Assembly (NCBI GenBank): GCA_964499645.1
Contig: CAZCLV010000001.1
Location: 1 to 50,400 of the forward strand
DNA from: an uncultured Mycoplasma sp.
Lineage (GTDB): Bacteria > Bacillota_I > Bacilli_A > RF39 > UBA660
Reading direction: 5' to 3'
DNA: 50,400 nucleotides
Shown: one piece after another, positions 240-11,986 of the stretch
How positions within the stretch are numbered: the first letter of the stretch is position 1
Layout: every line of letters starts with the position of its first letter
Notes under the pieces: generated by a model
Told to the model about the DNA's origin: nothing
Database searches by the model: none
What the model saw: the letters and a program-made list of their open reading frames with translations, nothing else
Made by a program: the position numbers and the translations under genes

Positions 240-1043
240 TCAATATTTTTTTATTCTTTCCAACGGACAAGTTAGACATCTTAAATAACCAGTTTCTTTT
301 ACTGTGTCATATATATCCATTACTTCTACTTTAAATTTTTTTTCTTTTAAAGCTCTAATTAAATCATCATGTCTTTTTTGTACTATGACAACATTATCCC
401 CTAAACAAATTACATTCGTTACTAATTCATCTTGTTCGCTTTTATCAACATAAATAATATTTGTAAATAACTCTTCTATTATATTTATTGATTCTTCTTC
501 TAACCCATCTTTATATACAATCACTGTATCTTTTGATATTGGATTAAATATACAATCTAAATGAACAAAAGGAAAATATGGATTAGGATTTTTCATATAT
601 AAAGGAATAATTCTATACTCTGGTGAAAAAGTATCATTCATAAACTTTAAACCATTTTCATTTGTTCTATTTCCTTTTTGACCAACAAAGATAATATCAT
701 TATAAAGTAGAACATCTCCGCCTTCGACAATTGTATCACCATATAAATAAATTCTATTTTTCCCATCTATTTTATCTAATATATCTTTGGCGGATTCTAT
801 TTCCAATTGTCTTATACTTTCTTTCATATGACAAATTAACATTTTATTTCCAATTACAATAAATGGATCTCTAACAAACATTTGATATCTATCATTATTC
901 TGTTTTTGAGTCATAACAATTTCTACATTATATTTCTTTAATATATCTAATAATTGTTTTTGCTGACTTGAGTATTCTTCATCTACTGGCGCTAATAACA
1001 CTTTAGTTAATTTATCATATTCATTTTTTACATTCAAACGCAT
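240..1043 (-). CDS. Guanidino-group-modifying enzyme superfamily protein (DDAH / amidinotransferase / arginine-deiminase fold)
   Basis: Motifs MFVRDPF, VEGGDVL, GNRTN, VHLDCIF and C-terminal GYLRCLTCP (candidate catalytic Cys). Last gene of the operon, 3 nt after the upstream stop. Confidence 0.75.
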   Translation of the reverse strand: MRLNVKNEYDKLTKVLLAPVDEEYSSQQKQLLDILKKYNVEIVMTQKQNNDRYQMFVRDPFIVIGNKMLICHMKESIRQLEIESAKDILDKIDGKNRIYLYGDTIVEGGDVLLYNDIIFVGQKGNRTNENGLKFMNDTFSPEYRIIPLYMKNPNPYFPFVHLDCIFNPISKDTVIVYKDGLEEESINIIEELFTNIIYVDKSEQDELVTNVICLGDNVVIVQKRHDDLIRALKEKKFKVEVMDIYDTVKETGYLRCLTCPLERIKKY

Positions 1044-1046
1044 TAT

Positions 1047-1655
1047 TTATCCTATTAAATCAGTGAAGTCTTCTACATAATAATCTGCAACTTCTTTTAT
1101 TTCTTTTAGTTCATCATTAGTAAAAGGATAATTCTTATTTTTAGCCCATATAGTAGAAATTCCAATATTTTTTGCTGCTTTTAATTCAAATGGCATATCA
1201 CAAATTGCTACTACCGTGGATTTATCAGATACCTTAACTAAATCTAAGGCTTTATTATATAATTCTTCATCTGTAAATTTACATTCGAAAAGTGTTTCAC
1301 TAGCAATTAAATCAAACTTTTCAAAAGGAAATGTTTTATTAACTTCCTCATTTTTTAACATAGTTTTATTCGTTAATTCACATTTATTAACAACTACTTG
1401 AGAAAGGCCATTATCTTTAAAATAATTTAAAGCTTTATCAGCATTAGCTCTATATCCCAATGTTTTATAAGCATTAGCTGCTATTTCTTCAGAAGCCTTA
1501 CCAACTTCCCCTTTACTAACACTTCCATATTTTTCCGCTACTAACTTATCCATGTTATACCACATAACTTCAGTATCAAATAATGTACCATCTAAATCCC
1601 AACAAATAAATTTAATATTTGGTAATGATTTTAATAATTTATTTACCTTTTTCAT
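1047..1655 (-). CDS. HAD-superfamily hydrolase/phosphatase
   Basis: Motif I WDLDGTLFDTE near the N-terminus. GGAGG Shine-Dalgarno upstream of the ATG. Confidence 0.75.
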   Translation of the reverse strand: MKKVNKLLKSLPNIKFICWDLDGTLFDTEVMWYNMDKLVAEKYGSVSKGEVGKASEEIAANAYKTLGYRANADKALNYFKDNGLSQVVVNKCELTNKTMLKNEEVNKTFPFEKFDLIASETLFECKFTDEELYNKALDLVKVSDKSTVVAICDMPFELKAAKNIGISTIWAKNKNYPFTNDELKEIKEVADYYVEDFTDLIG

Positions 1656-1663
1656 ATTTCCTC

Positions 1664-2449
1664 CTAGTTATCAATTATTTCATCTGTCATTTCATTAAAG
1701 CGTAATCCATTAACTAAAATTGATTCCATTCCATCTTCAATAATATGTCCAAACGATAATTCTGGAACTTCTTCAGGATTACAGAAGAATGGTCTTTCAT
1801 AACCTTGAGGACTAAATACTAACTTATAAATTTTGTTATCTCCAAATATAACAATATTTCTTGTATCTTTACTTAATTTAATAGGATTATTACTTTTCTT
1901 TCTAGCATGTCCTACATTTAAAGGTCTTTCTTCATCCCATTGCTTTTCAACATATAAAATACCTTTATATTTTTCTTTAAAGTACTCTAAATTATCTTCT
2001 GCCACTTGAGGATCTTTATTTAATAATCTCATAGAACGATCATGGTATTTACCTCTTGAAACGTAAACATAAACAGCATCAATATACTTGGTTTTCTTAG
2101 CGAATATATCTATCATTTTTTCTACTCTAGTACGATCAACACAGTTAGTAAAGAACCATACTTCATGAACCTTAATTTTATTTTTAACAATATTATCATA
2201 CATTCTTTGAACTAAATCTAATTCTAAAGATGGCTCTCCTCCTAATATTTTTAAAATATTTATTTCTTTAAAAGGTTTCATAGAAGCATCTATCATATCT
2301 ATAGTCATAGAACATTTACCAGGTCCACCTTCACTACAATAACCAACACAATTTAAATTACACTTTTGAGTGATTAGATATTCTAGTTCTTCTATCTTCA
2401 TATTATCCTTATCAAAATATTTTTTAAATGTCTCATATTTCTTATTCAT
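1664..2449 (-). CDS. Radical-SAM-type enzyme with atypical cluster motif CNLNCVGYC (Cx3Cx3C)
   Basis: N-terminal Cys triad-like motif followed by the GGEP SAM-binding motif (ILGGEPSLE). GGAG SD upstream. Confidence 0.6.
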   Translation of the reverse strand: MNKKYETFKKYFDKDNMKIEELEYLITQKCNLNCVGYCSEGGPGKCSMTIDMIDASMKPFKEINILKILGGEPSLELDLVQRMYDNIVKNKIKVHEVWFFTNCVDRTRVEKMIDIFAKKTKYIDAVYVYVSRGKYHDRSMRLLNKDPQVAEDNLEYFKEKYKGILYVEKQWDEERPLNVGHARKKSNNPIKLSKDTRNIVIFGDNKIYKLVFSPQGYERPFFCNPEEVPELSFGHIIEDGMESILVNGLRFNEMTDEIIDN

Positions 2450-2463
2450 ACAAACTCTCCTTC

Positions 2464-3429
2464 TTACTTATATACATTATTTTTTAACTTTCTAACACTT
2501 TTTAACCTTTTATCATTGAATGATAAATAATTATATTCAAAAATAGAAGGTAAATTATTATCAACTAATATCTTGTCTAGCTTTCTGCTTGAACCTTGGA
2601 AACGAGGATTAATCTCAATAAAATATAATTCATTATTTGTATATATATAATCTATTCCTAAAACTCCTCTATAACCAAGTTCTTTTAATTTCAAACATAT
2701 CTTTGTTGTATAATCCAAAAATTTCTTTCTTACATCCTTTTTAATCTTAATATCATAAAAAGAATCTACATATTCAATTTTTTCTCCAATTTCTAAATCT
2801 TGCATTGAAGGTGGAAAAATAATAAAATTACCACTTCCTATAACACAATTAATATTATATGGAATATTATCTTTCATATAGAAAGATATTATATACAACT
2901 CATCTGGTCTTAATTTATTTTTAATATCTTTCCAATTATCTTTATCACATAGAAATGTTTTGGATCCTCCACTACCAAGTGGATGTTGAACAACTAACAT
3001 TTCTCCTTTAGGACTTAATTTATTAAAATCAAAATCTTTATCTTTAATATATTGATATTCCAACATTGAAACCATTCCTTGAAATAATTCTCTCATTTCT
3101 TTTTTATTATTAAATAAACTAATTAAATAATCACTATTCTTACAAATTAATTTAGCATTACTAGGAATATCACATTGAGAAACTATTTTATAATCATGTG
3201 CCATAATTTCAAATGGTTCTTTTATTGTTTTTAATAATTCGTTATATATCTTTATTTCTCTAGGATTACTATCTGGATTCCAATATTCAAATTCTAATAC
3301 ATGATCTAAAGTATTAGTTGTATAAGATATATTCTTTTCACTATTATTACCAAACAAAGTAATAGAATAATCAAAAAAATTAGAATTCTCAATAGTTATC
3401 TCTTTTGGACCTACATAAACACGTTTCAT
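2464..3429 (-). CDS. ATP-grasp family ligase
   Basis: C-terminal GVLGIDYIY...LYFIEINPRFQGSS, typical of the ATP-grasp Mg/ATP site. Confidence 0.7.
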   Translation of the reverse strand: MKRVYVGPKEITIENSNFFDYSITLFGNNSEKNISYTTNTLDHVLEFEYWNPDSNPREIKIYNELLKTIKEPFEIMAHDYKIVSQCDIPSNAKLICKNSDYLISLFNNKKEMRELFQGMVSMLEYQYIKDKDFDFNKLSPKGEMLVVQHPLGSGGSKTFLCDKDNWKDIKNKLRPDELYIISFYMKDNIPYNINCVIGSGNFIIFPPSMQDLEIGEKIEYVDSFYDIKIKKDVRKKFLDYTTKICLKLKELGYRGVLGIDYIYTNNELYFIEINPRFQGSSRKLDKILVDNNLPSIFEYNYLSFNDKRLKSVRKLKNNVYK

Positions 3430-3438
3430 ATATTAACC

Positions 3439-4476
3439 TTATAAAACATTATGTGTGCATGGCTTACACAATGGTCCCATTTTAACTTTATATTTCTTAC
3501 AAATTTTTTCACTTTTCTCTTTAGCTTCAATAAATAAATCAGCTTTTGGTGGGAAATTAGCTTCGCCATACGGGAATAATGGTGATAATACTGGATTGAC
3601 TCCAATCTTAGCTAGTTTTTCTACACCTTTTAATGTTTCTTCTAAAGGTTCAATACCAACAATCAACAAAGAACGAACTCTATCTTTTCCAAATATCTTA
3701 ACTGCTGTTTCTAAAAACTTAAGATAATTTTCTTGACCAATAGCATATTTTTCTGGACAGTATTTTTTTAAATAATCAGGATGATTTAATTCCATATTAA
3801 TAGACAAGCCATATACCCCAACATCTTTTAAATGTTGAATATATCCTTCATATTGTAAACTATCATTATAACTAGTAAATCCCCTTGGAGTCATCATAAT
3901 ATCCATCTCGTAATCGTAATACTTCTTTGTAAAATGATCATACATATCAGTAATTGCTTCTAAATCTCTTTCATATACTGAACCACTTGATATTAATATA
4001 TGTCTCGTATTAGTTTGTTCTAAAGCTACTTCTAAAGCTTCTTCCATACCTTTAATAGAATTTAATTCATATTTATATTCAACAGCATTACAGAATTTAC
4101 AATTATTAGAGCAACCACTCATTAATTGTAAACGAGTACGATCTGTGTATGTATTTACATATACACATATTTTTTTACCATCAATTATCATTTCATCTCT
4201 CATATAATCTGGTGGTGTAATTACTGTAGTTTCTATTTTATCTTTTCCATCGCTAATATATAATTTTCCATCTTCGGTAATTAATTTATAATGTGAAGTT
4301 TTTTCAACACCAATAGTTGCATAAGTATCTTCATATTGTAATGAAATACCACTACAAGTAATATAATCATCCATCAACCAAATATCCGATTGCTTATCAA
4401 GTACTTTCTTAGTTTCCTTTGAAACTTTAATTCCTTCTTCAAGAAGTTTTGCTTTTAAAATAAATCCTTTCTCCAT
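3439..4476 (-). CDS. Radical SAM enzyme (canonical Cx3Cx2C) with an N-terminal extra domain of about 100 aa
   Basis: SGCSNNCKFCNA motif. GGAGG SD upstream. Confidence 0.8.
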   Translation of the reverse strand: MEKGFILKAKLLEEGIKVSKETKKVLDKQSDIWLMDDYITCSGISLQYEDTYATIGVEKTSHYKLITEDGKLYISDGKDKIETTVITPPDYMRDEMIIDGKKICVYVNTYTDRTRLQLMSGCSNNCKFCNAVEYKYELNSIKGMEEALEVALEQTNTRHILISSGSVYERDLEAITDMYDHFTKKYYDYEMDIMMTPRGFTSYNDSLQYEGYIQHLKDVGVYGLSINMELNHPDYLKKYCPEKYAIGQENYLKFLETAVKIFGKDRVRSLLIVGIEPLEETLKGVEKLAKIGVNPVLSPLFPYGEANFPPKADLFIEAKEKSEKICKKYKVKMGPLCKPCTHNVL

Positions 4477-4488
4477 ATACGTCCTCCT

Positions 4489-5661
4489 TTATTTATCTTC
4501 ATTATCTAAAATATCTTTAATTCTTTGTCTAATACTCCTAGAATCTGTCATTTTCATAATATCTTTCCATAATGGATAACAATGTTTACATTTAGGAATA
4601 TCTTCTAAAAATTTAATATCATATGTAGCATTAAATTTCTTTATTCCTTCTATGTATTCTCCTGTACATAAAGAGCAATTAGAAGAAGTTAAATGTGGGA
4701 ATACTTCATTTCTTCCCTCAAATCCTACTCCTTGGCTTCCACTTAAGACTTCCTCATCAAAATATCCTCCGATTCTAATATCTAAATTTTGATTAGGTAA
4801 AGCCTTATAAATACCTTTAACAATTTCTTCTATACTCCATAACCAAGGTACTCTATATTGCCCCATATCATATAAATAATTGGCTAAAGAATAATCTTGT
4901 AAAGAAGTAGGCTCAATAGATACTGCATCAAATCCCATATTGAAGCAATCAATAGAAGTTTGAATAGCATCTAAGACAGCTTCTCTTTCTGTTAAAAAGA
5001 TTGGTTTAAAATTAACATATGCTAATGCTTTATAGCCATACTTATGTAATCTTTTAATAGATTTTTTTATTGTTTCTAAATGTTCTAATCCTTTATGATG
5101 ACATAACTCTCTAATTGTTTTATTAGTAGATTCAACACCTATTCCTACTTCAACCAATCCTGAATATACATCTTTAATATTTTTTATTGCATCATCTGTA
5201 ACATATTCTGCTCTAGATTCTACAATAACTTTCTTAACTCCATCATATTGATTAAGAGTATTAAAAATATAATGTATTACTGGTTTTGATACTTCATTTT
5301 CATTAAACAGACTACCTAAGTTATATAAACATAAAACAGAATAATCATTTAAATTAAATTTAAAGTTTTCTTTTTCAATAGCTGTACCATCTAATACGCT
5401 ATCCCATTGGGCTTTATAATTCTTATCAGTTACTTTATGTATTGGAGTTCCATTGAAATGAGAACACATAGAACAACCTCCTGTTTTTTTATAATGTTCA
5501 CATCCATTAGCTCTTAATACAACCATAATACGATCAATTATTTTACCTTCATAGAAAAACTTATTAATCTCAATTTCTGCTAATTTATTATTATTAAATT
5601 TCTTTAAAATCGTATCATCTCTTAAAGATTTGATTTTCTTTTCTACGATATCTTTAACCAC
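4489..5661 (-). CDS. Radical-SAM-like enzyme of the Elp3/YhcC/TIGR01210-like type, with Cx8Cx2C and C-terminal CxxC...CxxC
   Basis: ANGCEHYKKTGGCSMCSH motif, C-terminal NCSLCTGEY...KCKHCYP. GTG start overlaps the upstream stop by 1 nt. Confidence 0.55.
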   Translation of the reverse strand: MVKDIVEKKIKSLRDDTILKKFNNNKLAEIEINKFFYEGKIIDRIMVVLRANGCEHYKKTGGCSMCSHFNGTPIHKVTDKNYKAQWDSVLDGTAIEKENFKFNLNDYSVLCLYNLGSLFNENEVSKPVIHYIFNTLNQYDGVKKVIVESRAEYVTDDAIKNIKDVYSGLVEVGIGVESTNKTIRELCHHKGLEHLETIKKSIKRLHKYGYKALAYVNFKPIFLTEREAVLDAIQTSIDCFNMGFDAVSIEPTSLQDYSLANYLYDMGQYRVPWLWSIEEIVKGIYKALPNQNLDIRIGGYFDEEVLSGSQGVGFEGRNEVFPHLTSSNCSLCTGEYIEGIKKFNATYDIKFLEDIPKCKHCYPLWKDIMKMTDSRSIRQRIKDILDNEDK

Positions 5662-7031
5662 TACTTCACATCCTTACATAAATTAATTACTGGTCTATAT
5701 TTAGTTCCTTTTAACATAGGGAATTCTTCAACCATTTCTATTTTTAATTCCATAGATTCCGGTATTAATAAATATATACTTTTTCTAATAACATCTAAAT
5801 CTAACTTGAAATCGCCAGGAATAAGATATAATACTAACTCTCCTTTTTTATATTGAACAAATTGATATCTTAATCCATGTACTGGAATATTAAATTCCAA
5901 ATACCAATTATAGGCAATATCCATAAATGAAGATGCTGGAACATATTTATTTTTACCTATCAAAATACTATCCATAAAACGTCCTTGTATTTTTCTCATT
6001 GTCCTACAATTATTATGACATCCACAAGAAATTGGTTTATCTAATATTACTAAATCTCCTTGATTATATTTAATAATTGGAGTTGAAGTATTTAATAGAT
6101 TAGTTCCTATTAATATTCCTTCTTCTCCGCATCTAACTTTTTTAAAGGTTTTTGGATTAACAGCTTCTACATAACAAGCATCCTCTTCCAAATGATATGT
6201 ATGATAAGGGCACTCTAAAGCTATTCTTGTTAATTCCTCACTACTATATTCATCAACTATTTTTACATTCAATTCTTTTTCTAATTCTTTTCTAAAAGAT
6301 CTACTGGATTGTTCTGAATGAACAATAACAGTTTCGACTCCATACTTACTTAAATCAATTCTTTTTTCACTTATTCTTTCAAGATAAGTAGGATATGTTG
6401 AAATTATTCTTGGTTTTATTTCTTTTATCTTAGAAATAGCTTCTTCAATCTTAGTTGTTGTAGGTAAAAATTCTGTTTTATATAATCCATCTACTTCTGT
6501 AATCCACCAAGGACACGTATATATAAATAAAACAGTATCTTTAGGATCATAATGATTTTCTGATTGCATATAATATTGTCTAAATCCTTGAATAGTATCT
6601 TCATATATAGCTTCTTTAGATACAGCTATTGTTACAAATTTACCACTTGATCCAGAACTACGCGTTGAAAGGTTAAAATCTTCAACATTTTTTGCTATAT
6701 CATTAGGAAAACCTTTAATCAATTCTTCTTTAGTCAAAATTGGTAATTTATCATAATCTTCCCAAGTCTTTATATCACCTTTTTTAAAACCAATAGCATC
6801 ATATTTTTTTCTATATAAAGGAATGTTTTCGTAAGCGTAATCAACAATAAACGATATTCTCTTTAATTGCCATTTTCTTATTTCTTCATAACTTTGATAT
6901 GGAAAATCACGAATACTTTCCCACTTTTTCTTCAGCATTTCTTTAATTCTATTTTCATGGATATTACTTTTAAAAATTTCTTTTGAATTTTTCTTTAAAT
7001 TAATATAATCATCATTTGTAAAATCATTCAT
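5661..7031 (-). CDS. Adenylate-forming ligase, phenylacetate-CoA ligase (PaaK) / coenzyme F390 synthetase / CapK-like
   Basis: STRSSGSSGKFVTI AMP-binding loop and KYNQGDLV motif. AGAGG SD upstream. Confidence 0.7.
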   Translation of the reverse strand: MNDFTNDDYINLKKNSKEIFKSNIHENRIKEMLKKKWESIRDFPYQSYEEIRKWQLKRISFIVDYAYENIPLYRKKYDAIGFKKGDIKTWEDYDKLPILTKEELIKGFPNDIAKNVEDFNLSTRSSGSSGKFVTIAVSKEAIYEDTIQGFRQYYMQSENHYDPKDTVLFIYTCPWWITEVDGLYKTEFLPTTTKIEEAISKIKEIKPRIISTYPTYLERISEKRIDLSKYGVETVIVHSEQSSRSFRKELEKELNVKIVDEYSSEELTRIALECPYHTYHLEEDACYVEAVNPKTFKKVRCGEEGILIGTNLLNTSTPIIKYNQGDLVILDKPISCGCHNNCRTMRKIQGRFMDSILIGKNKYVPASSFMDIAYNWYLEFNIPVHGLRYQFVQYKKGELVLYLIPGDFKLDLDVIRKSIYLLIPESMELKIEMVEEFPMLKGTKYRPVINLCKDVK

Positions 7032-7054
7032 AATTATTACCTCTTTCTAAATTA

Positions 7055-7112
7055 AAAAGTGATGTTAAAAACTATAATTAAATTACCCATCTAATTACAT
7101 TACATCACTTTT
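7055..7112 (-). promoter_or_regulatory. Intercistronic 11-bp stem with 36-nt loop followed by U5, in the only sizeable gap of the operon. Possible partial terminator or RNA stability element.
   Basis: AAAAGTGATGT 7055-7065 pairs with ACATCACTTTT 7102-7112. Starts 2 nt after the GNAT stop. Confidence 0.5.
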
Positions 7113-7113
7113 A

Positions 7114-7620
7114 TTACAATAACATTTCAAAACCATATTCATTCAATGAAAAATCATCATGAATTATTTCTTTATAAATTCCGGAAACCTTTTTAAAGCC
7201 ACAATTAGAATATAAATTAATAGCGGGAGTATTAATTTCACTAACTAATAGTCGCAAATACTTTGCATCTTTGCTTTTAGCAATTTTACAAGCCTCATTA
7301 ATTAGTTTTTTACCAATCCCCTGGTGCAAATATTTAACATTAACACCTAATCTATTTATTACATAAGCTTTGGCAGCATCATTTTCCCATTCTAAACCAT
7401 CAAAAGAATTAACAAATTCGTATAGAGAAAAAACACCTAGTATCTCTTTATCATTTTTTAATAAATAAAGATTTTGTTGTTCGATATCAGACTCAAAAAC
7501 CTCATTTGGATAATATTCATTCCAAATTTTAATATCATTTTCATACATATTTTTAATTATTCTTGTATACATTTCTTTTATTTGATTTAAATCTTCTAAT
7601 CTGGCTAAAACAACTTCCAT
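7114..7620 (-). CDS. GNAT family N-acetyltransferase
   Basis: HQGIGKKLINEA motif-A-like segment. The track ORF starts at GTG 7629, but ATG 7620 sits 5 nt after AAGAGGTG and is the more plausible start. Confidence 0.75.
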   Translation of the reverse strand: MEVVLARLEDLNQIKEMYTRIIKNMYENDIKIWNEYYPNEVFESDIEQQNLYLLKNDKEILGVFSLYEFVNSFDGLEWENDAAKAYVINRLGVNVKYLHQGIGKKLINEACKIAKSKDAKYLRLLVSEINTPAINLYSNCGFKKVSGIYKEIIHDDFSLNEYGFEMLL

Positions 7621-7625
7621 ACTTA

Positions 7626-8768
7626 TCACCTCTTCATCGACAATTTTTTATCTTCTTTTTTTATATATGTTAAATAGTTACTTAACAAATCTTTTAACTC
7701 AACTTCATAGTGCAACAAATTATCTATAGTAATTGTTTCTTTAGAACTATGAATTCCATCAGGAATCCCCGGACCATATATTACTATATTTGCATTTGAA
7801 AATAATTCTTGAAAATAACCTGCTTCAGTAGCATATTTCGCATCTAGCGTTGACTTTCCACCAATATCTGCTTGCTTATTTAAAAACTCACTTTCTCTTT
7901 TTTCAAATGGAGGTATTGATAGCACATTAAACAATTTTGATTCACCATAGCAATTACTTATTTCATTATGCTTTCTAATTAAATATCCGGAAATTGCATC
8001 AAGAATCATTTTATTAGATGTTCTAATTCCAAAACAAAGAGAACTCATATCAGGAACTACATTTGATGGAGATTTACCACCATCTATATGTGTAATACAA
8101 ATAGCAGCATCATTTGATGTTTGTTTCTTAACTTTCATTATTTCTGAACTAAATAGTGTTTGAAGTTCTATTGCATTTATTCCTAACTCTGGGGTTCCAG
8201 AATGACAGGAAATGCCATTCATAATGCTTACATAAATAGAATTTCCCTTACTTGATACATAATAATCTAAATTTGTTGGTTCCCCAACAATAACCATGCT
8301 AGAATTTATATTTCTATTTTTAAGTTCACTAATTATTTGTTGAATTCCTATTAAATAATGTTCTTCATCACTAGTTAAAGAAATTATTACTGGTATATCT
8401 AAACTTTTTAAATAATCTAAATTGGCTATTATTGTAGCTACAAAAGATTTCATATCTGAAATACCTAATCCTTTAAGATTATTTCCATTAATTATAACAT
8501 TACAATTATGACCTTCACTTTCTCTAACTGTATCTATATGTCCAGATAATATTATAGAATCTTCAATATCCCTTAACTTGTGATTAACACCAATTAACAA
8601 ATGAATATTACCATTTTTATCCTCAATTTCTATTTTATCACAACAGTCATCAAAAGTAGTCCGTAAATATTCTATTATCTGATGCTTTTTTCCAATTTGA
8701 CCATATGAAGGAATACTTACGAGATCTTTTAAAATTGTAAGAACGTTATTTTCTTTTCTTGCTTCCAT
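7626..8768 (-). CDS. M20 family metallo-peptidase/deacylase (ArgE/DapE-like)
   Basis: SGHIDTV, ISDMKS and TSDEEH metal-ligand motifs. Start overlaps the ABC-F 3' end by 23 nt. Confidence 0.8.
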   Translation of the reverse strand: MEARKENNVLTILKDLVSIPSYGQIGKKHQIIEYLRTTFDDCCDKIEIEDKNGNIHLLIGVNHKLRDIEDSIILSGHIDTVRESEGHNCNVIINGNNLKGLGISDMKSFVATIIANLDYLKSLDIPVIISLTSDEEHYLIGIQQIISELKNRNINSSMVIVGEPTNLDYYVSSKGNSIYVSIMNGISCHSGTPELGINAIELQTLFSSEIMKVKKQTSNDAAICITHIDGGKSPSNVVPDMSSLCFGIRTSNKMILDAISGYLIRKHNEISNCYGESKLFNVLSIPPFEKRESEFLNKQADIGGKSTLDAKYATEAGYFQELFSNANIVIYGPGIPDGIHSSKETITIDNLLHYEVELKDLLSNYLTYIKKEDKKLSMKR

Positions 8769-10410
8769 ATTCTAGTGCCTTTTCTTCAGTTATTAATGAT
8801 GCTCTGTATTCATCATAATTACCCCAATATTGGTTAACTTTGCCATCTCCAAATACTAAAATTCTATTAGCAAATTTATTTATAAAAAATCTATCATGAC
8901 TAATAAATATTAACGTGCCAGAAAATTCTTCTAACGCTTCTTCCAATACCTCCTTAGTAGGAATATCTATATGGTTAGTTGGTTCATCAAAAATCAAAGT
9001 ATTTATTTCTTGTTGTAATAATTCAGCCATCTTAATTTTCATTTTTTCGCCACCAGATAAGTTTTTAACCCTTTTATTCACATCTTCAACATCAAATCTA
9101 AATCTAGCTAAAATACTACGACATCTCTGTTCGGGCAATCCAACTGCTCTTGTAAAATATTCTAATAAAGTTTGATTGCCATTTTCAAATTCAATTATTT
9201 GTGGTATATATCCTATTTTAACACTTGGGCCAACAAATACTTCTCCACTAACAGGTAGTTCTTGTTTACCCATAATTGTTTTAACAAAAGTTGATTTACC
9301 TGTTCCATTTTCGCCTAAAAGTGCTACTCTTTCACCTGCGCAAACTTCTAGATTTATACTATCAAGAATTTTCTTTCCATCTGGTATTTTCACAGATAAA
9401 TCATTAGCAATTATTATTTTTTTGCTTGATTTATTTTCTTCTAAGAAAGACATATTTAATTTTTTTTGTACAGTCGGTTTTTTAATAGATTTTTCTCTCA
9501 TTCTTTGTGTTCTTTCCCACAACGTTTTGCCTTGTTTAGTTAATGCAGAACTATTTCGACCCATACCTAAACTCATAAATTGTTTAGCCTTAGCCTCTAA
9601 TTGCTTTATTGCTTCTTGTTCATCACCATATTGTGTCATTTGTTTTTCAAACTCTATTTCACGTTGCGTTAAGTATCCTGAATAATTAGTGGCATATATT
9701 TTTCCAATTCCATAATCATCGATTGCCAATATTTGATTAGCCATTTTATCTAAAAAATATCTATCATGCGATACTATAATTGATGCACCTTTAAATGATT
9801 TTATATAATCTTCTAACCATTCAATTCTTTTCAAATCAAGATGATTAGTAGGTTCATCAAGTAATAATAAATCTGGTTCTATCAATAAAGATTTAGCAAG
9901 TTGAACCAATGTTTGTTCTCCTCCAGATAAAGTACTATATGATTGTTCTAACATACTTTTATTTAATTCCAATCCATTGATAACTGTGTTGATTTTTACA
10001 TCAACATCATATCCTCCCATTAAATTAAATTTTTCTAGTAAAGCACAATATTTTTCTAAAATTTTTTCACTATATTCTTCGCTTACTTTTCGCTCATATT
10101 CTTTTAATTGTTTTTCAATTATATTTATTTCGCCAAAAGCATCCTTTAGTATTTCGTAAACAGTCCTATCATCCTCTATGCTTGAACTTAATTGATCTAA
10201 GTATGCAACTTTGGTACCTTTTTTTAAGTTTACTGTACCCCTGTCTGGCGTTTCAAGCCCAGCTATAATCTTTAAAATGGTTGATTTTCCACAGCCATTA
10301 GGTCCAACTATTGCAACTGACTCACCCTCATTAAGAGTAAATGATACATCTTCAAACAATTGCTCGTATCCAAAATTCTTTGCTAATTTATTAGCATCCA
10401 GTATTAACAC
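8746..10410 (-). CDS. ABC-F family ATPase (two ABC cassettes, no transmembrane domain), a translation-associated/ARE-like class
   Basis: GPNGCGKST...LSGGEQ...LLLLDEPTNHLD, then GENGTGKST...LSGGEK...LIFDEPTNHID, with a charged linker of about 80 aa. GTG 10410 lies 8 nt after GGAGG and is preferred over the track start at 10497. Confidence 0.85.
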   Translation of the reverse strand: MLILDANKLAKNFGYEQLFEDVSFTLNEGESVAIVGPNGCGKSTILKIIAGLETPDRGTVNLKKGTKVAYLDQLSSSIEDDRTVYEILKDAFGEINIIEKQLKEYERKVSEEYSEKILEKYCALLEKFNLMGGYDVDVKINTVINGLELNKSMLEQSYSTLSGGEQTLVQLAKSLLIEPDLLLLDEPTNHLDLKRIEWLEDYIKSFKGASIIVSHDRYFLDKMANQILAIDDYGIGKIYATNYSGYLTQREIEFEKQMTQYGDEQEAIKQLEAKAKQFMSLGMGRNSSALTKQGKTLWERTQRMREKSIKKPTVQKKLNMSFLEENKSSKKIIIANDLSVKIPDGKKILDSINLEVCAGERVALLGENGTGKSTFVKTIMGKQELPVSGEVFVGPSVKIGYIPQIIEFENGNQTLLEYFTRAVGLPEQRCRSILARFRFDVEDVNKRVKNLSGGEKMKIKMAELLQQEINTLIFDEPTNHIDIPTKEVLEEALEEFSGTLIFISHDRFFINKFANRILVFGDGKVNQYWGNYDEYRASLITEEKALEYGSKKRK

Positions 10411-10437
10411 AAAACATCCCTCCTTATTTTTAACAAT

Positions 10438-10545
10438 ATTTACATTTATAACGTGAGCAACAATTATTACTTCTTTATAAAAATTATGCAAAAACACGGA
10501 TTGTAAGTAATAATAAATCAGTTCATATTGATTATAAATGTAAAT
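10438..10545 (-). promoter_or_regulatory. Structured 5' leader of the ABC-F gene: nested 14-bp and 10-bp perfect inverted repeats
   Basis: Plus ATTTACATTTATAA 10438-10451 vs TTATAAATGTAAAT 10532-10545. Inner pair ATTATTACTT 10463-10472 vs AAGTAATAAT 10505-10514. Confidence 0.55.
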
Positions 10546-10577
10546 TATAATATGGCAATCACCTAAAATTTCTCTTT

Positions 10578-10606
10578 ATTATATAGGTTTATTCAAAAAA
10601 AGTCAA
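10578..10606 (-). promoter_or_regulatory. Consensus sigma-A-type promoter of the ten-gene operon
   Basis: Minus strand TTGACT (10606-10601), 17-nt spacer, TATAAT (10583-10578). Confidence 0.75.
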
Positions 10607-10630
10607 CATATACTTCTGGTAAATTATTTT

Positions 10631-10694
10631 ATGACACTATGACACATTAATCGAGAGACCACTACTAGCAAAGATAGTGTCAAGTGTCATTTTT
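10631..10694. repeat. Inverted repeat built from four TGACAC half-sites with a 31-nt spacer and flanking T run. Either a bidirectional hairpin/insulator or a protein-binding site.
   Basis: ATGACACTATGACAC 10631-10645 vs GTGTCAAGTGTCAT 10677-10690, then TTTT. Confidence 0.5.
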
Positions 10695-10843
10695 AATTCC
10701 TTTTTGGCAATTTACTATAGTCATATTTATCCATAATTGGATTAAGTAAATCCTGGGATTTATTCAATTGTTCTACAGCTTGTTGCAATGTATATTCACT
10801 TTTACCTTCTTTAAGTAATTTTAAATGTTCTGTTAATAAATTA

Positions 10844-11017: not shown

Positions 11018-11986
11018 ATGACTTTTAAAGAATTATATCTTGCTTTTTATGAATATCAAAAAGATAAAGTTAAAGAAACAACTATTCATACTTATTTAGA
11101 TAGAATGAGATATATGCAATATTTAGATAATATTAAAGTTAAAGAATTTAATCTACAACATTATGAAATGTGGAGAAAAAAGATATTAGAATGTAAATTA
11201 TCTAATAGAACTAGAAACTATATTTATAAGTTTTTAAAAACTATTATAAATTTTGGAACTAAATGGTATGGACTTAATTTTAATAATATATATCCTAAAA
11301 TGACTAATTTCACAGATCCAAACGAAAGAAAAAAGGAAATGGAATTTTGGACTTATGATGAATTTAGTAAATTTATATCAGTTGAAGATAATTTAACATT
11401 TAAAACTTTCTTTAAAACATTATATTATTGTGGACTTCGAAAAGGTGAAGCAAGAGCATTAGATTGGAAAGATATAGATTTTATTAATAATACTCTAATA
11501 GTTAGAAAAGGTTTATCTGATAATGTTAATGGAATTAAATATATAATATCTAGCCCAAAGACTTTAAATAGTAATAGAACACTACCTTTATCAAAAGAGT
11601 TAGTAAATGATTTAAAAAAGTTAAAACAAAGTGTAATGGAATATACTAATTTTAAAGAAGAATGGTTTGTATTTGGTAATGACTTACCTCTTGGTGATGA
11701 TGTTATCAGAAGAAGAAAAAATAATAATTGTGTTTTAGCAGGGGTTAAACAAATTAGAATACATGATTTTAGGCATAGTTGTGCTAGTTTACTAATTAAC
11801 AATGGTGCTGACATAACACTTGTTGCTAAATATCTAGGACACACAAAAATTGATGAAACTCTAAACACATATTCACATATGTTTAAAAATAAATTAAATA
11901 ATATTATTGGTCTTATTGATAATTTGAATGAACAATCTAATAAAGAATATGAAAATAAAAAAGATGACTTTGAAATAAGTATATAA
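11018..11986 (+). CDS. Tyrosine site-specific recombinase/integrase (core-binding plus catalytic domains; N-terminal arm domain apparently cut off)
   Basis: GLRKGEARAL (Arg), IHDFRHSCAS (HxxR), LGHTKIDETLNTYSH (His/Tyr). Confidence 0.85.
   Translation: MTFKELYLAFYEYQKDKVKETTIHTYLDRMRYMQYLDNIKVKEFNLQHYEMWRKKILECKLSNRTRNYIYKFLKTIINFGTKWYGLNFNNIYPKMTNFTDPNERKKEMEFWTYDEFSKFISVEDNLTFKTFFKTLYYCGLRKGEARALDWKDIDFINNTLIVRKGLSDNVNGIKYIISSPKTLNSNRTLPLSKELVNDLKKLKQSVMEYTNFKEEWFVFGNDLPLGDDVIRRRKNNNCVLAGVKQIRIHDFRHSCASLLINNGADITLVAKYLGHTKIDETLNTYSHMFKNKLNNIIGLIDNLNEQSNKEYENKKDDFEISI

Follow-up and report, generated by a model that had tools for sequence, protein, structure and literature searches.

We report the analysis of an ABC-F ATPase gene and of its leader in a 50,400-nucleotide stretch of contig CAZCLV010000001.1 from an uncultured Mycoplasma sp., the whole of which is referred to here as the window. 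The reading that we regard as probable, based on comparison with related loci, is that the gene encodes an accessory ABC-F protein from an unnamed Bacillota clade and forms the first, translationally coupled cistron of a mobile ten-gene operon with an adenylating ligase and a RaSEA-like radical S-adenosylmethionine (SAM) enzyme at its core; that the protein acts on the ribosome of its own host; and that the nested inverted repeats of the leader do not constitute a switch, the attenuator inherited by this leader having been lost. Related loci compared with the window are designated by L-numbers (L009, L014 and so on), with L095 denoting an independent assembly.

The genes that make up this system are arranged in the window as follows:

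8746..10410, reverse strand: ABC-F ATPase of 554 amino acids (aa), with a GTG start, two ABC domains and no membrane domain
7626..8768, reverse strand: M20 (ArgE/DapE-like) deacylase, the second cistron, whose ATG overlaps the 3′ end of the ABC-F gene by 23 nt
240..7629, reverse strand: genes 3-10 of the operon, from a GNAT protein to an amidinotransferase/DDAH-fold enzyme
11018..11986, forward strand: tyrosine recombinase (phage-integrase family), divergent from the operon and ~400 bp upstream of it

A first-pass annotation of this DNA had described the ABC-F gene as the leading cistron of a biosynthetic-looking operon, a description that our analysis upholds, since nine co-directional genes lie behind it and it overlaps the next one. 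After the M20 deacylase, the operon encodes the GNAT protein, a PaaK-like adenylating ligase, the RaSEA-like radical SAM enzyme, a variant radical SAM enzyme, an ATP-grasp protein, a further radical SAM enzyme, a HAD protein and the amidinotransferase/DDAH-fold enzyme. The overlap of 23 nt is kept in five relatives (L009, L014, L072, L073 and L075), which suggests that translation of the ABC-F gene is coupled to that of the operon. Gene order is preserved across the whole operon in L009 and L014/L016, and as far as the locus reaches in L033, L036, L052, L053, L072 and L073. The same operon lies behind the ABC-F gene in 11 distinct loci, and the gene stands alone, as an orphan, in 7; orphan copies are common for immunity genes.

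The core of the operon recurs in a second setting. The RaSEA-like enzyme of the window (4489-5661; 197 bits against a TIGR01210 cut-off of 212) has homologues at 63-65% identity that stand behind the same kind of ligase in differently built operons (L092:7634-15161, L093:6344-16288 and L094:7634-15184). The best-sampled RaSEA-like protein of this second design is P0227 (the version in L092), which is present in 126 blocks of the collection. Second-design operons comprise the ligase, the RaSEA-like enzyme, a PALP enzyme, an aminotransferase, an arginase-fold enzyme, an Orn/DAP decarboxylase and a terminal ABC-F protein of 549-559 aa, which belongs to the same clade (support 100/99) as the window protein. 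The features of a producer-type gene can hence be listed as a cistron overlap, linkage to the operon in 11 loci, and a same-clade ABC-F that closes three differently built ligase/RaSEA-like operons. Because two designs sharing one enzyme core have recruited a single ABC-F clade, as the first gene in one and as the last gene in the other, the ABC-F protein and the operon appear to be functionally tied. We consider this recurrence good comparative evidence for such a tie, which would fit self-protection or signalling and proves neither; as a whole, the linkage favours a dedicated ribosome-protection or self-resistance role for the protein.

The distribution of the ABC-F gene is patchy. A comparison of the window protein with 60 related genomes (E ≤ 1e-100) returned no match in any of the seven other species of the same genus and matches in 4 of 36 family genomes, with a best identity of 57%. 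Many ABC-F copies at 65-90% identity were found in metagenomes, where a scan added only three further close relatives, and the named carriers of these relatives are metagenome-assembled genomes of gut Bacilli, such as Candidatus Coprovivens and rabbit-gut 'Bacilli bacterium' bins. The other ABC-F of the genome is a YbiT orthologue encoded on another contig. A housekeeping protein present at the same locus in all relatives would have been hard to reconcile with self-resistance, and the window ABC-F is not of this kind, as judged by the lack of a match in all seven congeneric genomes, by the YbiT orthologue located elsewhere and by scores below the cut-offs of the housekeeping models (given below). 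The neighbouring integrase is 82% identical to that of the mobilisable element carrying the operon in L014, where the same operon is accompanied by the integrase, a Mob_Pre relaxase, an AAA_25 protein and a helix-turn-helix (HTH_3) regulator. A direct-repeat search for attachment-site repeats around the island found nothing convincing. Judged by its distribution and context, the ABC-F gene is accessory and mobile.

Analysis of the protein itself confirms ABC-F membership, with two PF00005 (ABC_tran) domains, PF12848 (ABC_tran_Xtn) and no membrane domain, and with both Walker A, signature, DEPTNH Walker B (twice) and H-loop motifs present. The arm of the first nucleotide-binding domain (NBD1) is retained, and the inter-domain linker is ~10 aa longer than in housekeeping ABC-Fs: H-loop 1 lies 152 aa from Walker A 2, as compared with 140-145 aa in E. 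coli EttA, Uup, YbiT and YheS (140-143), in OptrA (142) and in OptrA relatives, and with 172-175 aa in Vga(C) and Msr(G). The sole NCBIfam model to pass is the generic NF000355 (447 bits, cut-off 380); its 'ribosomal protection-like' label was discarded as evidence of resistance, given that two E. coli proteins, YbiT (431) and EttA (380), also reach its cut-off. All named resistance models fall short (score/cut-off: Vga 337/725, producer-type NF000171 319/800, Sal 303/725, Msr 301/680, OptrA 296/1450, CplR 281/780 and Lsa 252/750), as do the housekeeping ones (EttA 379/599, Uup 349/900, YbiT 343/762 and YheS 296/917). Against solved structures, EttA, YheS and YbiT obtain slightly higher sequence scores than VmlR, PoxtA, MsrE and Vga. 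A maximum-likelihood tree was built with E. coli EttA, Uup, YbiT and YheS, plasmid-borne OptrA, PoxtA, Vga(A), Vga(C) and Msr(G), and the ABC-Fs of related genomes. It places the window protein inside the 100/99 clade of unnamed Bacillota ABC-Fs, apart from the OptrA clade, EttA, Uup, YbiT, YheS, Vga and Msr and also outside PoxtA; the longer Bacillota proteins that group with OptrA are presumably YdiF-like. The choice between a resistance and a housekeeping ABC-F, which the first-pass annotation had put forward among the tests of its proposal, is decided on one side: the protein is not a housekeeping one, and by model cut-offs and tree it belongs to no named resistance subfamily. These comparisons leave it unclassified among the ABC-Fs, with a linker that is modestly extended.

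The best plasmid match to the protein, at 41% identity, lies on Staphylococcus simulans plasmid NZ_CP095105.1 (L086, 17225-18813), where an unannotated sequence in two pieces, probably a frameshifted ABC-F, is found between an IS6 element and a RepL gene.

The leader that precedes the ABC-F gene contains the following elements, given in the order of transcription:

10578..10606, reverse strand: sigma-A/sigma-70-type promoter TTGACT-17-TATAAT, located by promoter scan and matching 11/12 consensus positions
10551..10571, reverse strand: leader 5′ box AAAUUUUAGGUGAUUGCCAUA, a degenerate UUGCCC antiterminator box that reads UUGCCA here
10558..10532, reverse strand: UUG-started mini open reading frame (mini-ORF), MPYYNLHL-stop, whose UAA lies in the 5′ arm of the 14-bp repeat
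10532..10545, reverse strand: 5′ arm of the 14-bp repeat, AUUUACAUUUAUAA, which makes up the final 14 nt of the mini-ORF
10505..10514, reverse strand: 5′ arm of the 10-bp inner repeat, AUUAUUACUU, an arm kept in relatives
10463..10472, reverse strand: 3′ arm of the 10-bp inner repeat, AAGUAAUAAU, adjoining a 9-nt insertion specific to the lineage of the window
10438..10451, reverse strand: 3′ arm of the 14-bp repeat, UUAUAAAUGUAAAU, followed by AUUGUUAAAAAU and no U-tract
10418..10425, reverse strand: Shine-Dalgarno sequence AAGGAGGG of the ABC-F gene, which does not pair with the hairpin when the leader is folded in silico

The layout described earlier for this region is largely sustained. 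The promoter, which had been called perfect, is present and near-consensus, and it is kept both in relatives with the same ABC-F gene and in leaders of the same family that precede other genes, with the general form TTGAC(T/A)-17-TAnAAT. With the transcription start placed ~7 nt past the -10 box, the leader has the ~160 nt originally estimated. The start codon proposed for the gene, GTG 10410, lies 8 nt from GGAGG (10423..10419) and is taken to be correct because homologues measure 541-555 aa and align from their first residues.

Upstream of this start codon, the ABC-F frame remains open for 55 codons (window 10411-10575), which is unusual at 24% G+C. An N-terminally extended protein starting at GTG 10497 was considered and rejected in view of the length of the homologues and of the relatives, where the frame is shut within 1-23 codons; on the latter ground, the upstream opening is probably due to chance.

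A repeat finder recovered the nested arrangement exactly as it had been reported, with a perfect 14-bp inverted repeat enclosing a perfect 10-bp one. When the 163-nt leader was shuffled with its dinucleotides preserved, 2 of 3000 sequences contained a perfect inverted repeat of at least 14 bp, and 10% contained one of at least 10 bp. The genome (845 kb, 24.4% G+C) contains 53 perfect repeats of at least 14 bp with loops of up to 100 nt, most of them ordinary terminators, and those of at least 14 bp with loops of at least 30 nt number 12, where base composition leads one to expect ~6-9. Since these long-loop repeats occur genome-wide at a density of ~0.7 per 50 kb, finding one somewhere in the window is unremarkable. 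The assertion that repeats of this length are unlikely to arise by chance is thus valid for the leader taken by itself and not for a 50-kb window. An assembly artefact is discounted because L095 carries an identical leader. A genome-wide search for the 14-mer found only its two arms; for this reason, and because the leaders of relatives are equal in length without a gap, a mobile mini-element (miniature inverted-repeat transposable element, MITE) was rejected as the source of the repeat.

Several properties of the repeats are at variance with a regulatory hairpin. The fold energy of the leader is ordinary (z = +0.9 over 171 nt and z = -0.9 over 139 nt), its predicted fold being no stabler than those of shuffled sequences because the arms are almost pure A/U. 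A terminator scan of the window leader returned no terminator-like site, with a U-tract after neither hairpin and no GC-rich stem, and the predicted fold displays no sequestration of the Shine-Dalgarno sequence by the hairpin. In the homologous columns of L014, L075 and L070, the closest relatives (with a 90% identical protein), the 14-bp arms are neither conserved, complementary nor compensated, and within the AT-rich leader group they align to unrelated, non-complementary sequence. These observations speak against the original proposal that the nested hairpin acts as a ribosome-sensing attenuator. As far as sequence comparison can tell, the nested 14-bp and 10-bp repeats are no conserved switch for sensing ribosomes but a lineage-specific novelty of a decayed leader. 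Template-switch copying is a plausible origin for them, given that the perfect complementarity adjoins the private 9-nt insertion.

The ancestry of the leader becomes apparent when upstream regions are compared across 16 loci. Terminator-bearing leaders, with the promoter kept, were found in L009/L033/L051, L072, L073/L074, L036, L038 and L035. The ancestral-type leaders are located as follows:

L009:9853-9957
L072:2319-2421
L073:2332-2426
L036:3852-3946
L038:3848-3940
L035:3882-3970

In these leaders, the conserved 5′ stretch ends ~12 nt into the transcript in a UUGCCC box that is invariant in 9/9 sequences, and 25-40 nt of variable AU-rich sequence separate the box from a strong intrinsic terminator of the form GGGACAnnGGGCA-loop-UGCUUnUUGUCCC-U6-7; the Shine-Dalgarno sequence of the ABC-F gene follows ~35-85 nt past the U-tract. 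RNAalifold recovers this terminator, in which both partners have changed at 5 pairs, and the fold of the relatives' leaders has z = -2.7 to -3.2. The UUGCCC box is complementary to a GGGCA/GGCAA segment in the 5′ arm of the terminator, and when the transcript is cut ahead of the 3′ arm, the minimum free energy fold pairs the box with that arm in 6/9 leaders. In the alignment, 74% of cells support the pairing of box and 5′ arm in register, compared with 27-56% when the two are slid against each other. The nine-sequence alignment contains no covariation for this pairing because both sides are conserved; between L091 (GAUUGCC/GGCAAUC) and L076 (GUUUGCC/GGCAAAC) there is one compensatory change. 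Five relatives' loci had no match in Rfam 15 at E ≤ 1. We interpret the relatives' leader as a putative terminator/antiterminator attenuator of gut Bacilli that is not yet catalogued. The suggestion of leader-based attenuation, made from the window alone, consequently holds for relatives with terminator-type leaders and not for the window leader, which has no terminator.

Comparison of the window with this ancestral form suggests that its leader is a decayed copy. A covariance model built on the leaders of relatives finds its counterpart in the window in the 5′ box only (E 0.55), with 47 terminator positions skipped; whole-genome searches with the leader models gave no hit in the window's own genome, and reading of the window leader revealed no partner for the UUGCCA box. 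No Rfam family was found in the window at gathering thresholds, and a leader search extended to E = 10 produced only chance hits, the best at E = 2.1. The window shares with L014, L075 and L070 an AT-rich leader without the terminator 5′ arm. Among these, the box is altered to UUGCCA or UUGACA in all three that keep it (the window, L014 and L075), and in L070 both promoter and box are missing; in L052 the whole leader has been lost. In the ABC-F tree, the window, L014, L075 and L070 form one clade (100/99) among several terminator-bearing branches, and because the terminator-less leaders are confined to this nested clade, a single loss of the terminator appears the most parsimonious history. 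With the terminator lost and the box decaying, the operon is probably expressed constitutively in the window through read-through.

Covariance-model and pattern searches in up to 401 family genomes revealed the same leader module ahead of genes other than ABC-F. It precedes a precursor resembling those of peptides made by ribosomes and then modified post-translationally (RiPPs; ..GLGYDGCGTHTH) in L076, L077, L101 and L110, with a radical SAM enzyme following the precursor in L076, the only locus read downstream; it also precedes a TehB-like methyltransferase (L107, L111), a HAD-IA hydrolase (L078) and a PMI-like cupin (L091). The pattern search yielded 17 forward hits versus 5 control hits, and about half of the forward hits are due to chance (tRNA, rpoB and mnmA regions). 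Since the leader is not specific to ABC-F genes, a strictly antibiotic-sensing interpretation is weakened and a general control of accessory genes is indicated. The precursor-like peptide encoded in these four loci (L076 being G015:C18) is a conserved product of 43-47 aa, MKK..NDIVKNLKTKLS..KIKISFGNKIGLGYDGCGTHTH(K), which matched no NCBIfam model and looks like a member of an undescribed RiPP family.

All 12 leaders examined contain a UUG-CCN mini-ORF of 2-26 codons (UUG-ACA in L075) that starts inside the box and opens with Met-Pro. It has no Shine-Dalgarno sequence at normal spacing, with purine-rich stretches located just 0-5 nt upstream (in the window, AGGUGA abuts the UUG), and its UUG-CCC start also forms the conserved pairing strand of the antiterminator. 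Were the mini-ORF translated, a loading ribosome would sit on the antiterminator strand and favour termination, whereas loss of initiation would free the box and lead to antitermination. In the lmrC leader, translation of the second upstream open reading frame (uORF2) is needed for terminator formation (PMC8546547). Antitermination of the LoaP type (a NusG paralogue) was set aside as unlikely, the genome having a single NusG. These elements (promoter, start-site T-tract, invariant UUGCCC box, AU-rich spacer and terminator) may be taken further, to an undescribed class of attenuator that would place ABC-F and secondary-metabolite genes in a single translation-stress regulon, in which the Met-Pro mini-ORF senses translation and from whose control the window copy has escaped; we put this forward as a speculative and rather unlikely extension.

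Two further observations concern the start of the transcript and its surroundings. In all related leaders, as in the window (10561-10571), the initial transcribed bases read (A/G)A(U)UUU(U)(A/G)G, and we take this start-site T-tract to resemble the initial sequences that drive uridine triphosphate-sensitive reiterative transcription in E. coli pyrBI, codBA and upp. Within the leader, a TTGCCA-16-TATAAT site (window 10531-10558, 11/12) has the decayed box as its -35 element and a -10 element within the 5′ arm of the 14-bp repeat, so that transcripts starting from it would be without that arm; it was rejected as a second promoter, given that 39 such matches were found against 31 expected from shuffles, a number near chance. 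The region just upstream of the -35 box holds one more repeated element:

10630..10692, no strand assigned: four TGACAC motifs in an inverted pair of doublets, found by repeat search and kept in L014

These motifs may be an operator, or else a hairpin ending the remnant of an upstream 74-aa gene, of which just the last 31 codons remain in the window (10693-10788).

Combining these lines of evidence, we favour a scheme in which the strong, conserved promoter would start transcription into a leader descended from a terminator/antiterminator attenuator. In the window subclade, the terminator would have been lost once and the box, now UUGCCA, would be decaying, so that the operon is read through constitutively. 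The ABC-F protein would then act on the producer's own ribosome, protecting it from the operon product or signalling its presence, after the pattern of Ard1, LmrC and OleB. Some of our results weigh against this scheme. The protein belongs to no proven resistance subfamily, and its linker exceeds those of housekeeping ABC-Fs by only ~10 aa, so that a role as a translation factor tied to the operon is possible. The coupling of leader, ABC-F and operon is loose, with L052 having the operon without any leader and other loci having orphan ABC-Fs. Lastly, the rarity of a 14-bp repeat in leader shuffles, together with a 5′ arm that coincides with the end of the mini-ORF, leaves some room for a new, lineage-specific regulatory hairpin.

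This last possibility can be formulated as a newly evolved attenuator, in which a ribosome stalled on the mini-ORF (UUG 10558-UAA 10532) melts the 14-bp stem, thereby affecting how stable the ABC-F message is, or how it is processed or translated, and conferring inducible self-resistance. The 2 in 3000 frequency of the repeat, the 10-bp repeat nested within it and the identity of the mini-ORF's final 14 nt with the 5′ arm are in keeping with such a device, and resistance ABC-F genes are commonly controlled in this manner, as documented for vmlR (PMC9226507), msrD (PMC10314930) and lmrC (PMC8546547). However, neither hairpin has the U-tract or GC-rich stem that a terminator would need, the Shine-Dalgarno sequence is not paired with the hairpin, the fold is of ordinary energy, the AGGUGA ahead of the UUG abuts it and so does not provide a properly spaced Shine-Dalgarno sequence, and the arms are neither conserved nor compensated in L014, L075 and L070. 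We therefore hold a new regulatory hairpin to be distinctly improbable. The 14-bp arms could instead function in the DNA, as operators: a dimeric or tetrameric repressor bound to both would loop the region downstream of the promoter and keep the operon repressed. The arms provide two identical sites in inverted orientation and in helical phase, with centres 94 bp apart (~9 helical turns), the inverted TGACAC set lies on the other side of the promoter, and the L014 element encodes an HTH_3 regulator. Yet L014 and L075 lack the arms although they have this promoter and operon, the window element does not contain the HTH gene of L014, no regulator gene is adjacent, and AT-rich long-loop repeats number ~12 per genome, which is near chance. 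Repression by looping hence seems to us very improbable indeed.

At the opposite extreme, the repeats might be chance or neutral by-products of AT-rich non-coding DNA, and the ABC-F a lineage-specific translation factor that merely precedes the operon. The near-expected genome-wide count of long-loop 14-bp repeats and the lack of conservation of those in the leader agree with the first part of this explanation, and the seven loci with an ABC-F and no operon, together with the higher scores of EttA, YheS and YbiT structures over resistance proteins, agree with the second. A translation factor of the lineage is harder to reconcile with the failure to find the ABC-F in the other searched species of the genus, with its association with the ligase/RaSEA-like core in two independent operon designs and with its overlap with the next gene. 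We consider this explanation unlikely, and retain as the preferred reading that of an accessory ABC-F acting on the ribosome of its host behind a leader that has lost its attenuator.

In actinomycetes, antibiotic gene clusters are known that include an ABC-F gene. The closest systems to the one described here are such producer ABC-Fs, namely Ard1 (A201A cluster; bioRxiv 10.1101/2022.12.05.519065), LmrC (lincomycin; PMC8546547), for which a signalling role has been shown (PMC8546547), and OleB/CarA/SrmB/TlrC (NF000171). In common with them, the window has an ABC-F without membrane domain inside, and presumably co-transcribed with, what appears to be a small-molecule operon, here as an accessory and mobile gene, and, as with lmrC, a terminator-type leader precedes the ABC-F gene in relatives. 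The window protein differs in scoring well below the NF000171 cut-off (319 versus 800) and in belonging to a separate, unnamed Bacillota clade; its host is an uncultured, reduced-genome member of the gut Bacilli and not an actinomycete, and its attenuator has been lost.

With respect to regulation, the relatives' leaders resemble that of B. subtilis vmlR (PMC9226507) in having a promoter, a 5′ element, an intrinsic terminator and an alternative, terminator-preventing pairing ahead of an ABC-F gene. The vmlR leader contains a 3-codon uORF with a proven Shine-Dalgarno sequence in an anti-antiterminator hairpin, together with a hairpin in which the Shine-Dalgarno sequence is concealed (PMC9226507). 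In contrast, the only conserved mini-ORF of the family described here (UUG-CCN) starts in the antiterminator strand without a spaced Shine-Dalgarno sequence, neither sequence similarity nor an Rfam match was found, and the window has no terminator. The uORF2 logic of the lmrC attenuator could fit the ancestral leader, with loading on the UUG-CCC box blocking the antiterminator.

The nearest named group in the tree is the clade of OptrA (phenicol/oxazolidinone resistance), with which the window protein shares the NBD1 arm and a linker that is short compared with Vga and Msr. It differs from OptrA in forming a separate clade, in its score (296 versus a cut-off of 1450) and in having 51 aa after H-loop 2 as opposed to 123-144 aa, with no long C-terminal extension. 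For the operon core, the nearest known relative is the ArcS-RaSEA archaeosine synthase (TIGR01210). The RaSEA-like enzyme of the window, which always comes after an adenylating ligase, approaches it in score (197 bits versus a cut-off of 212). It differs in falling short of that cut-off, in having a PaaK-like ligase and not ArcS as its partner, and in belonging to a biosynthetic operon and not to tRNA modification.

These results outline an uncatalogued terminator/antiterminator leader that is common to several types of accessory genes and tractable for study, and they illustrate that a striking perfect hairpin need not be the regulatory device, the loss of the real switch being visible only through comparison with relatives. 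They also connect an unnamed ABC-F clade with an uncharacterised ligase/RaSEA-like pathway, which integrative elements carry among uncultured members of the gut Bacilli. Should the protein protect ribosomes, the orphan ABC-F copies would constitute a candidate resistance reservoir, and the product of the operon would be a candidate new translation inhibitor of the gut microbiome.

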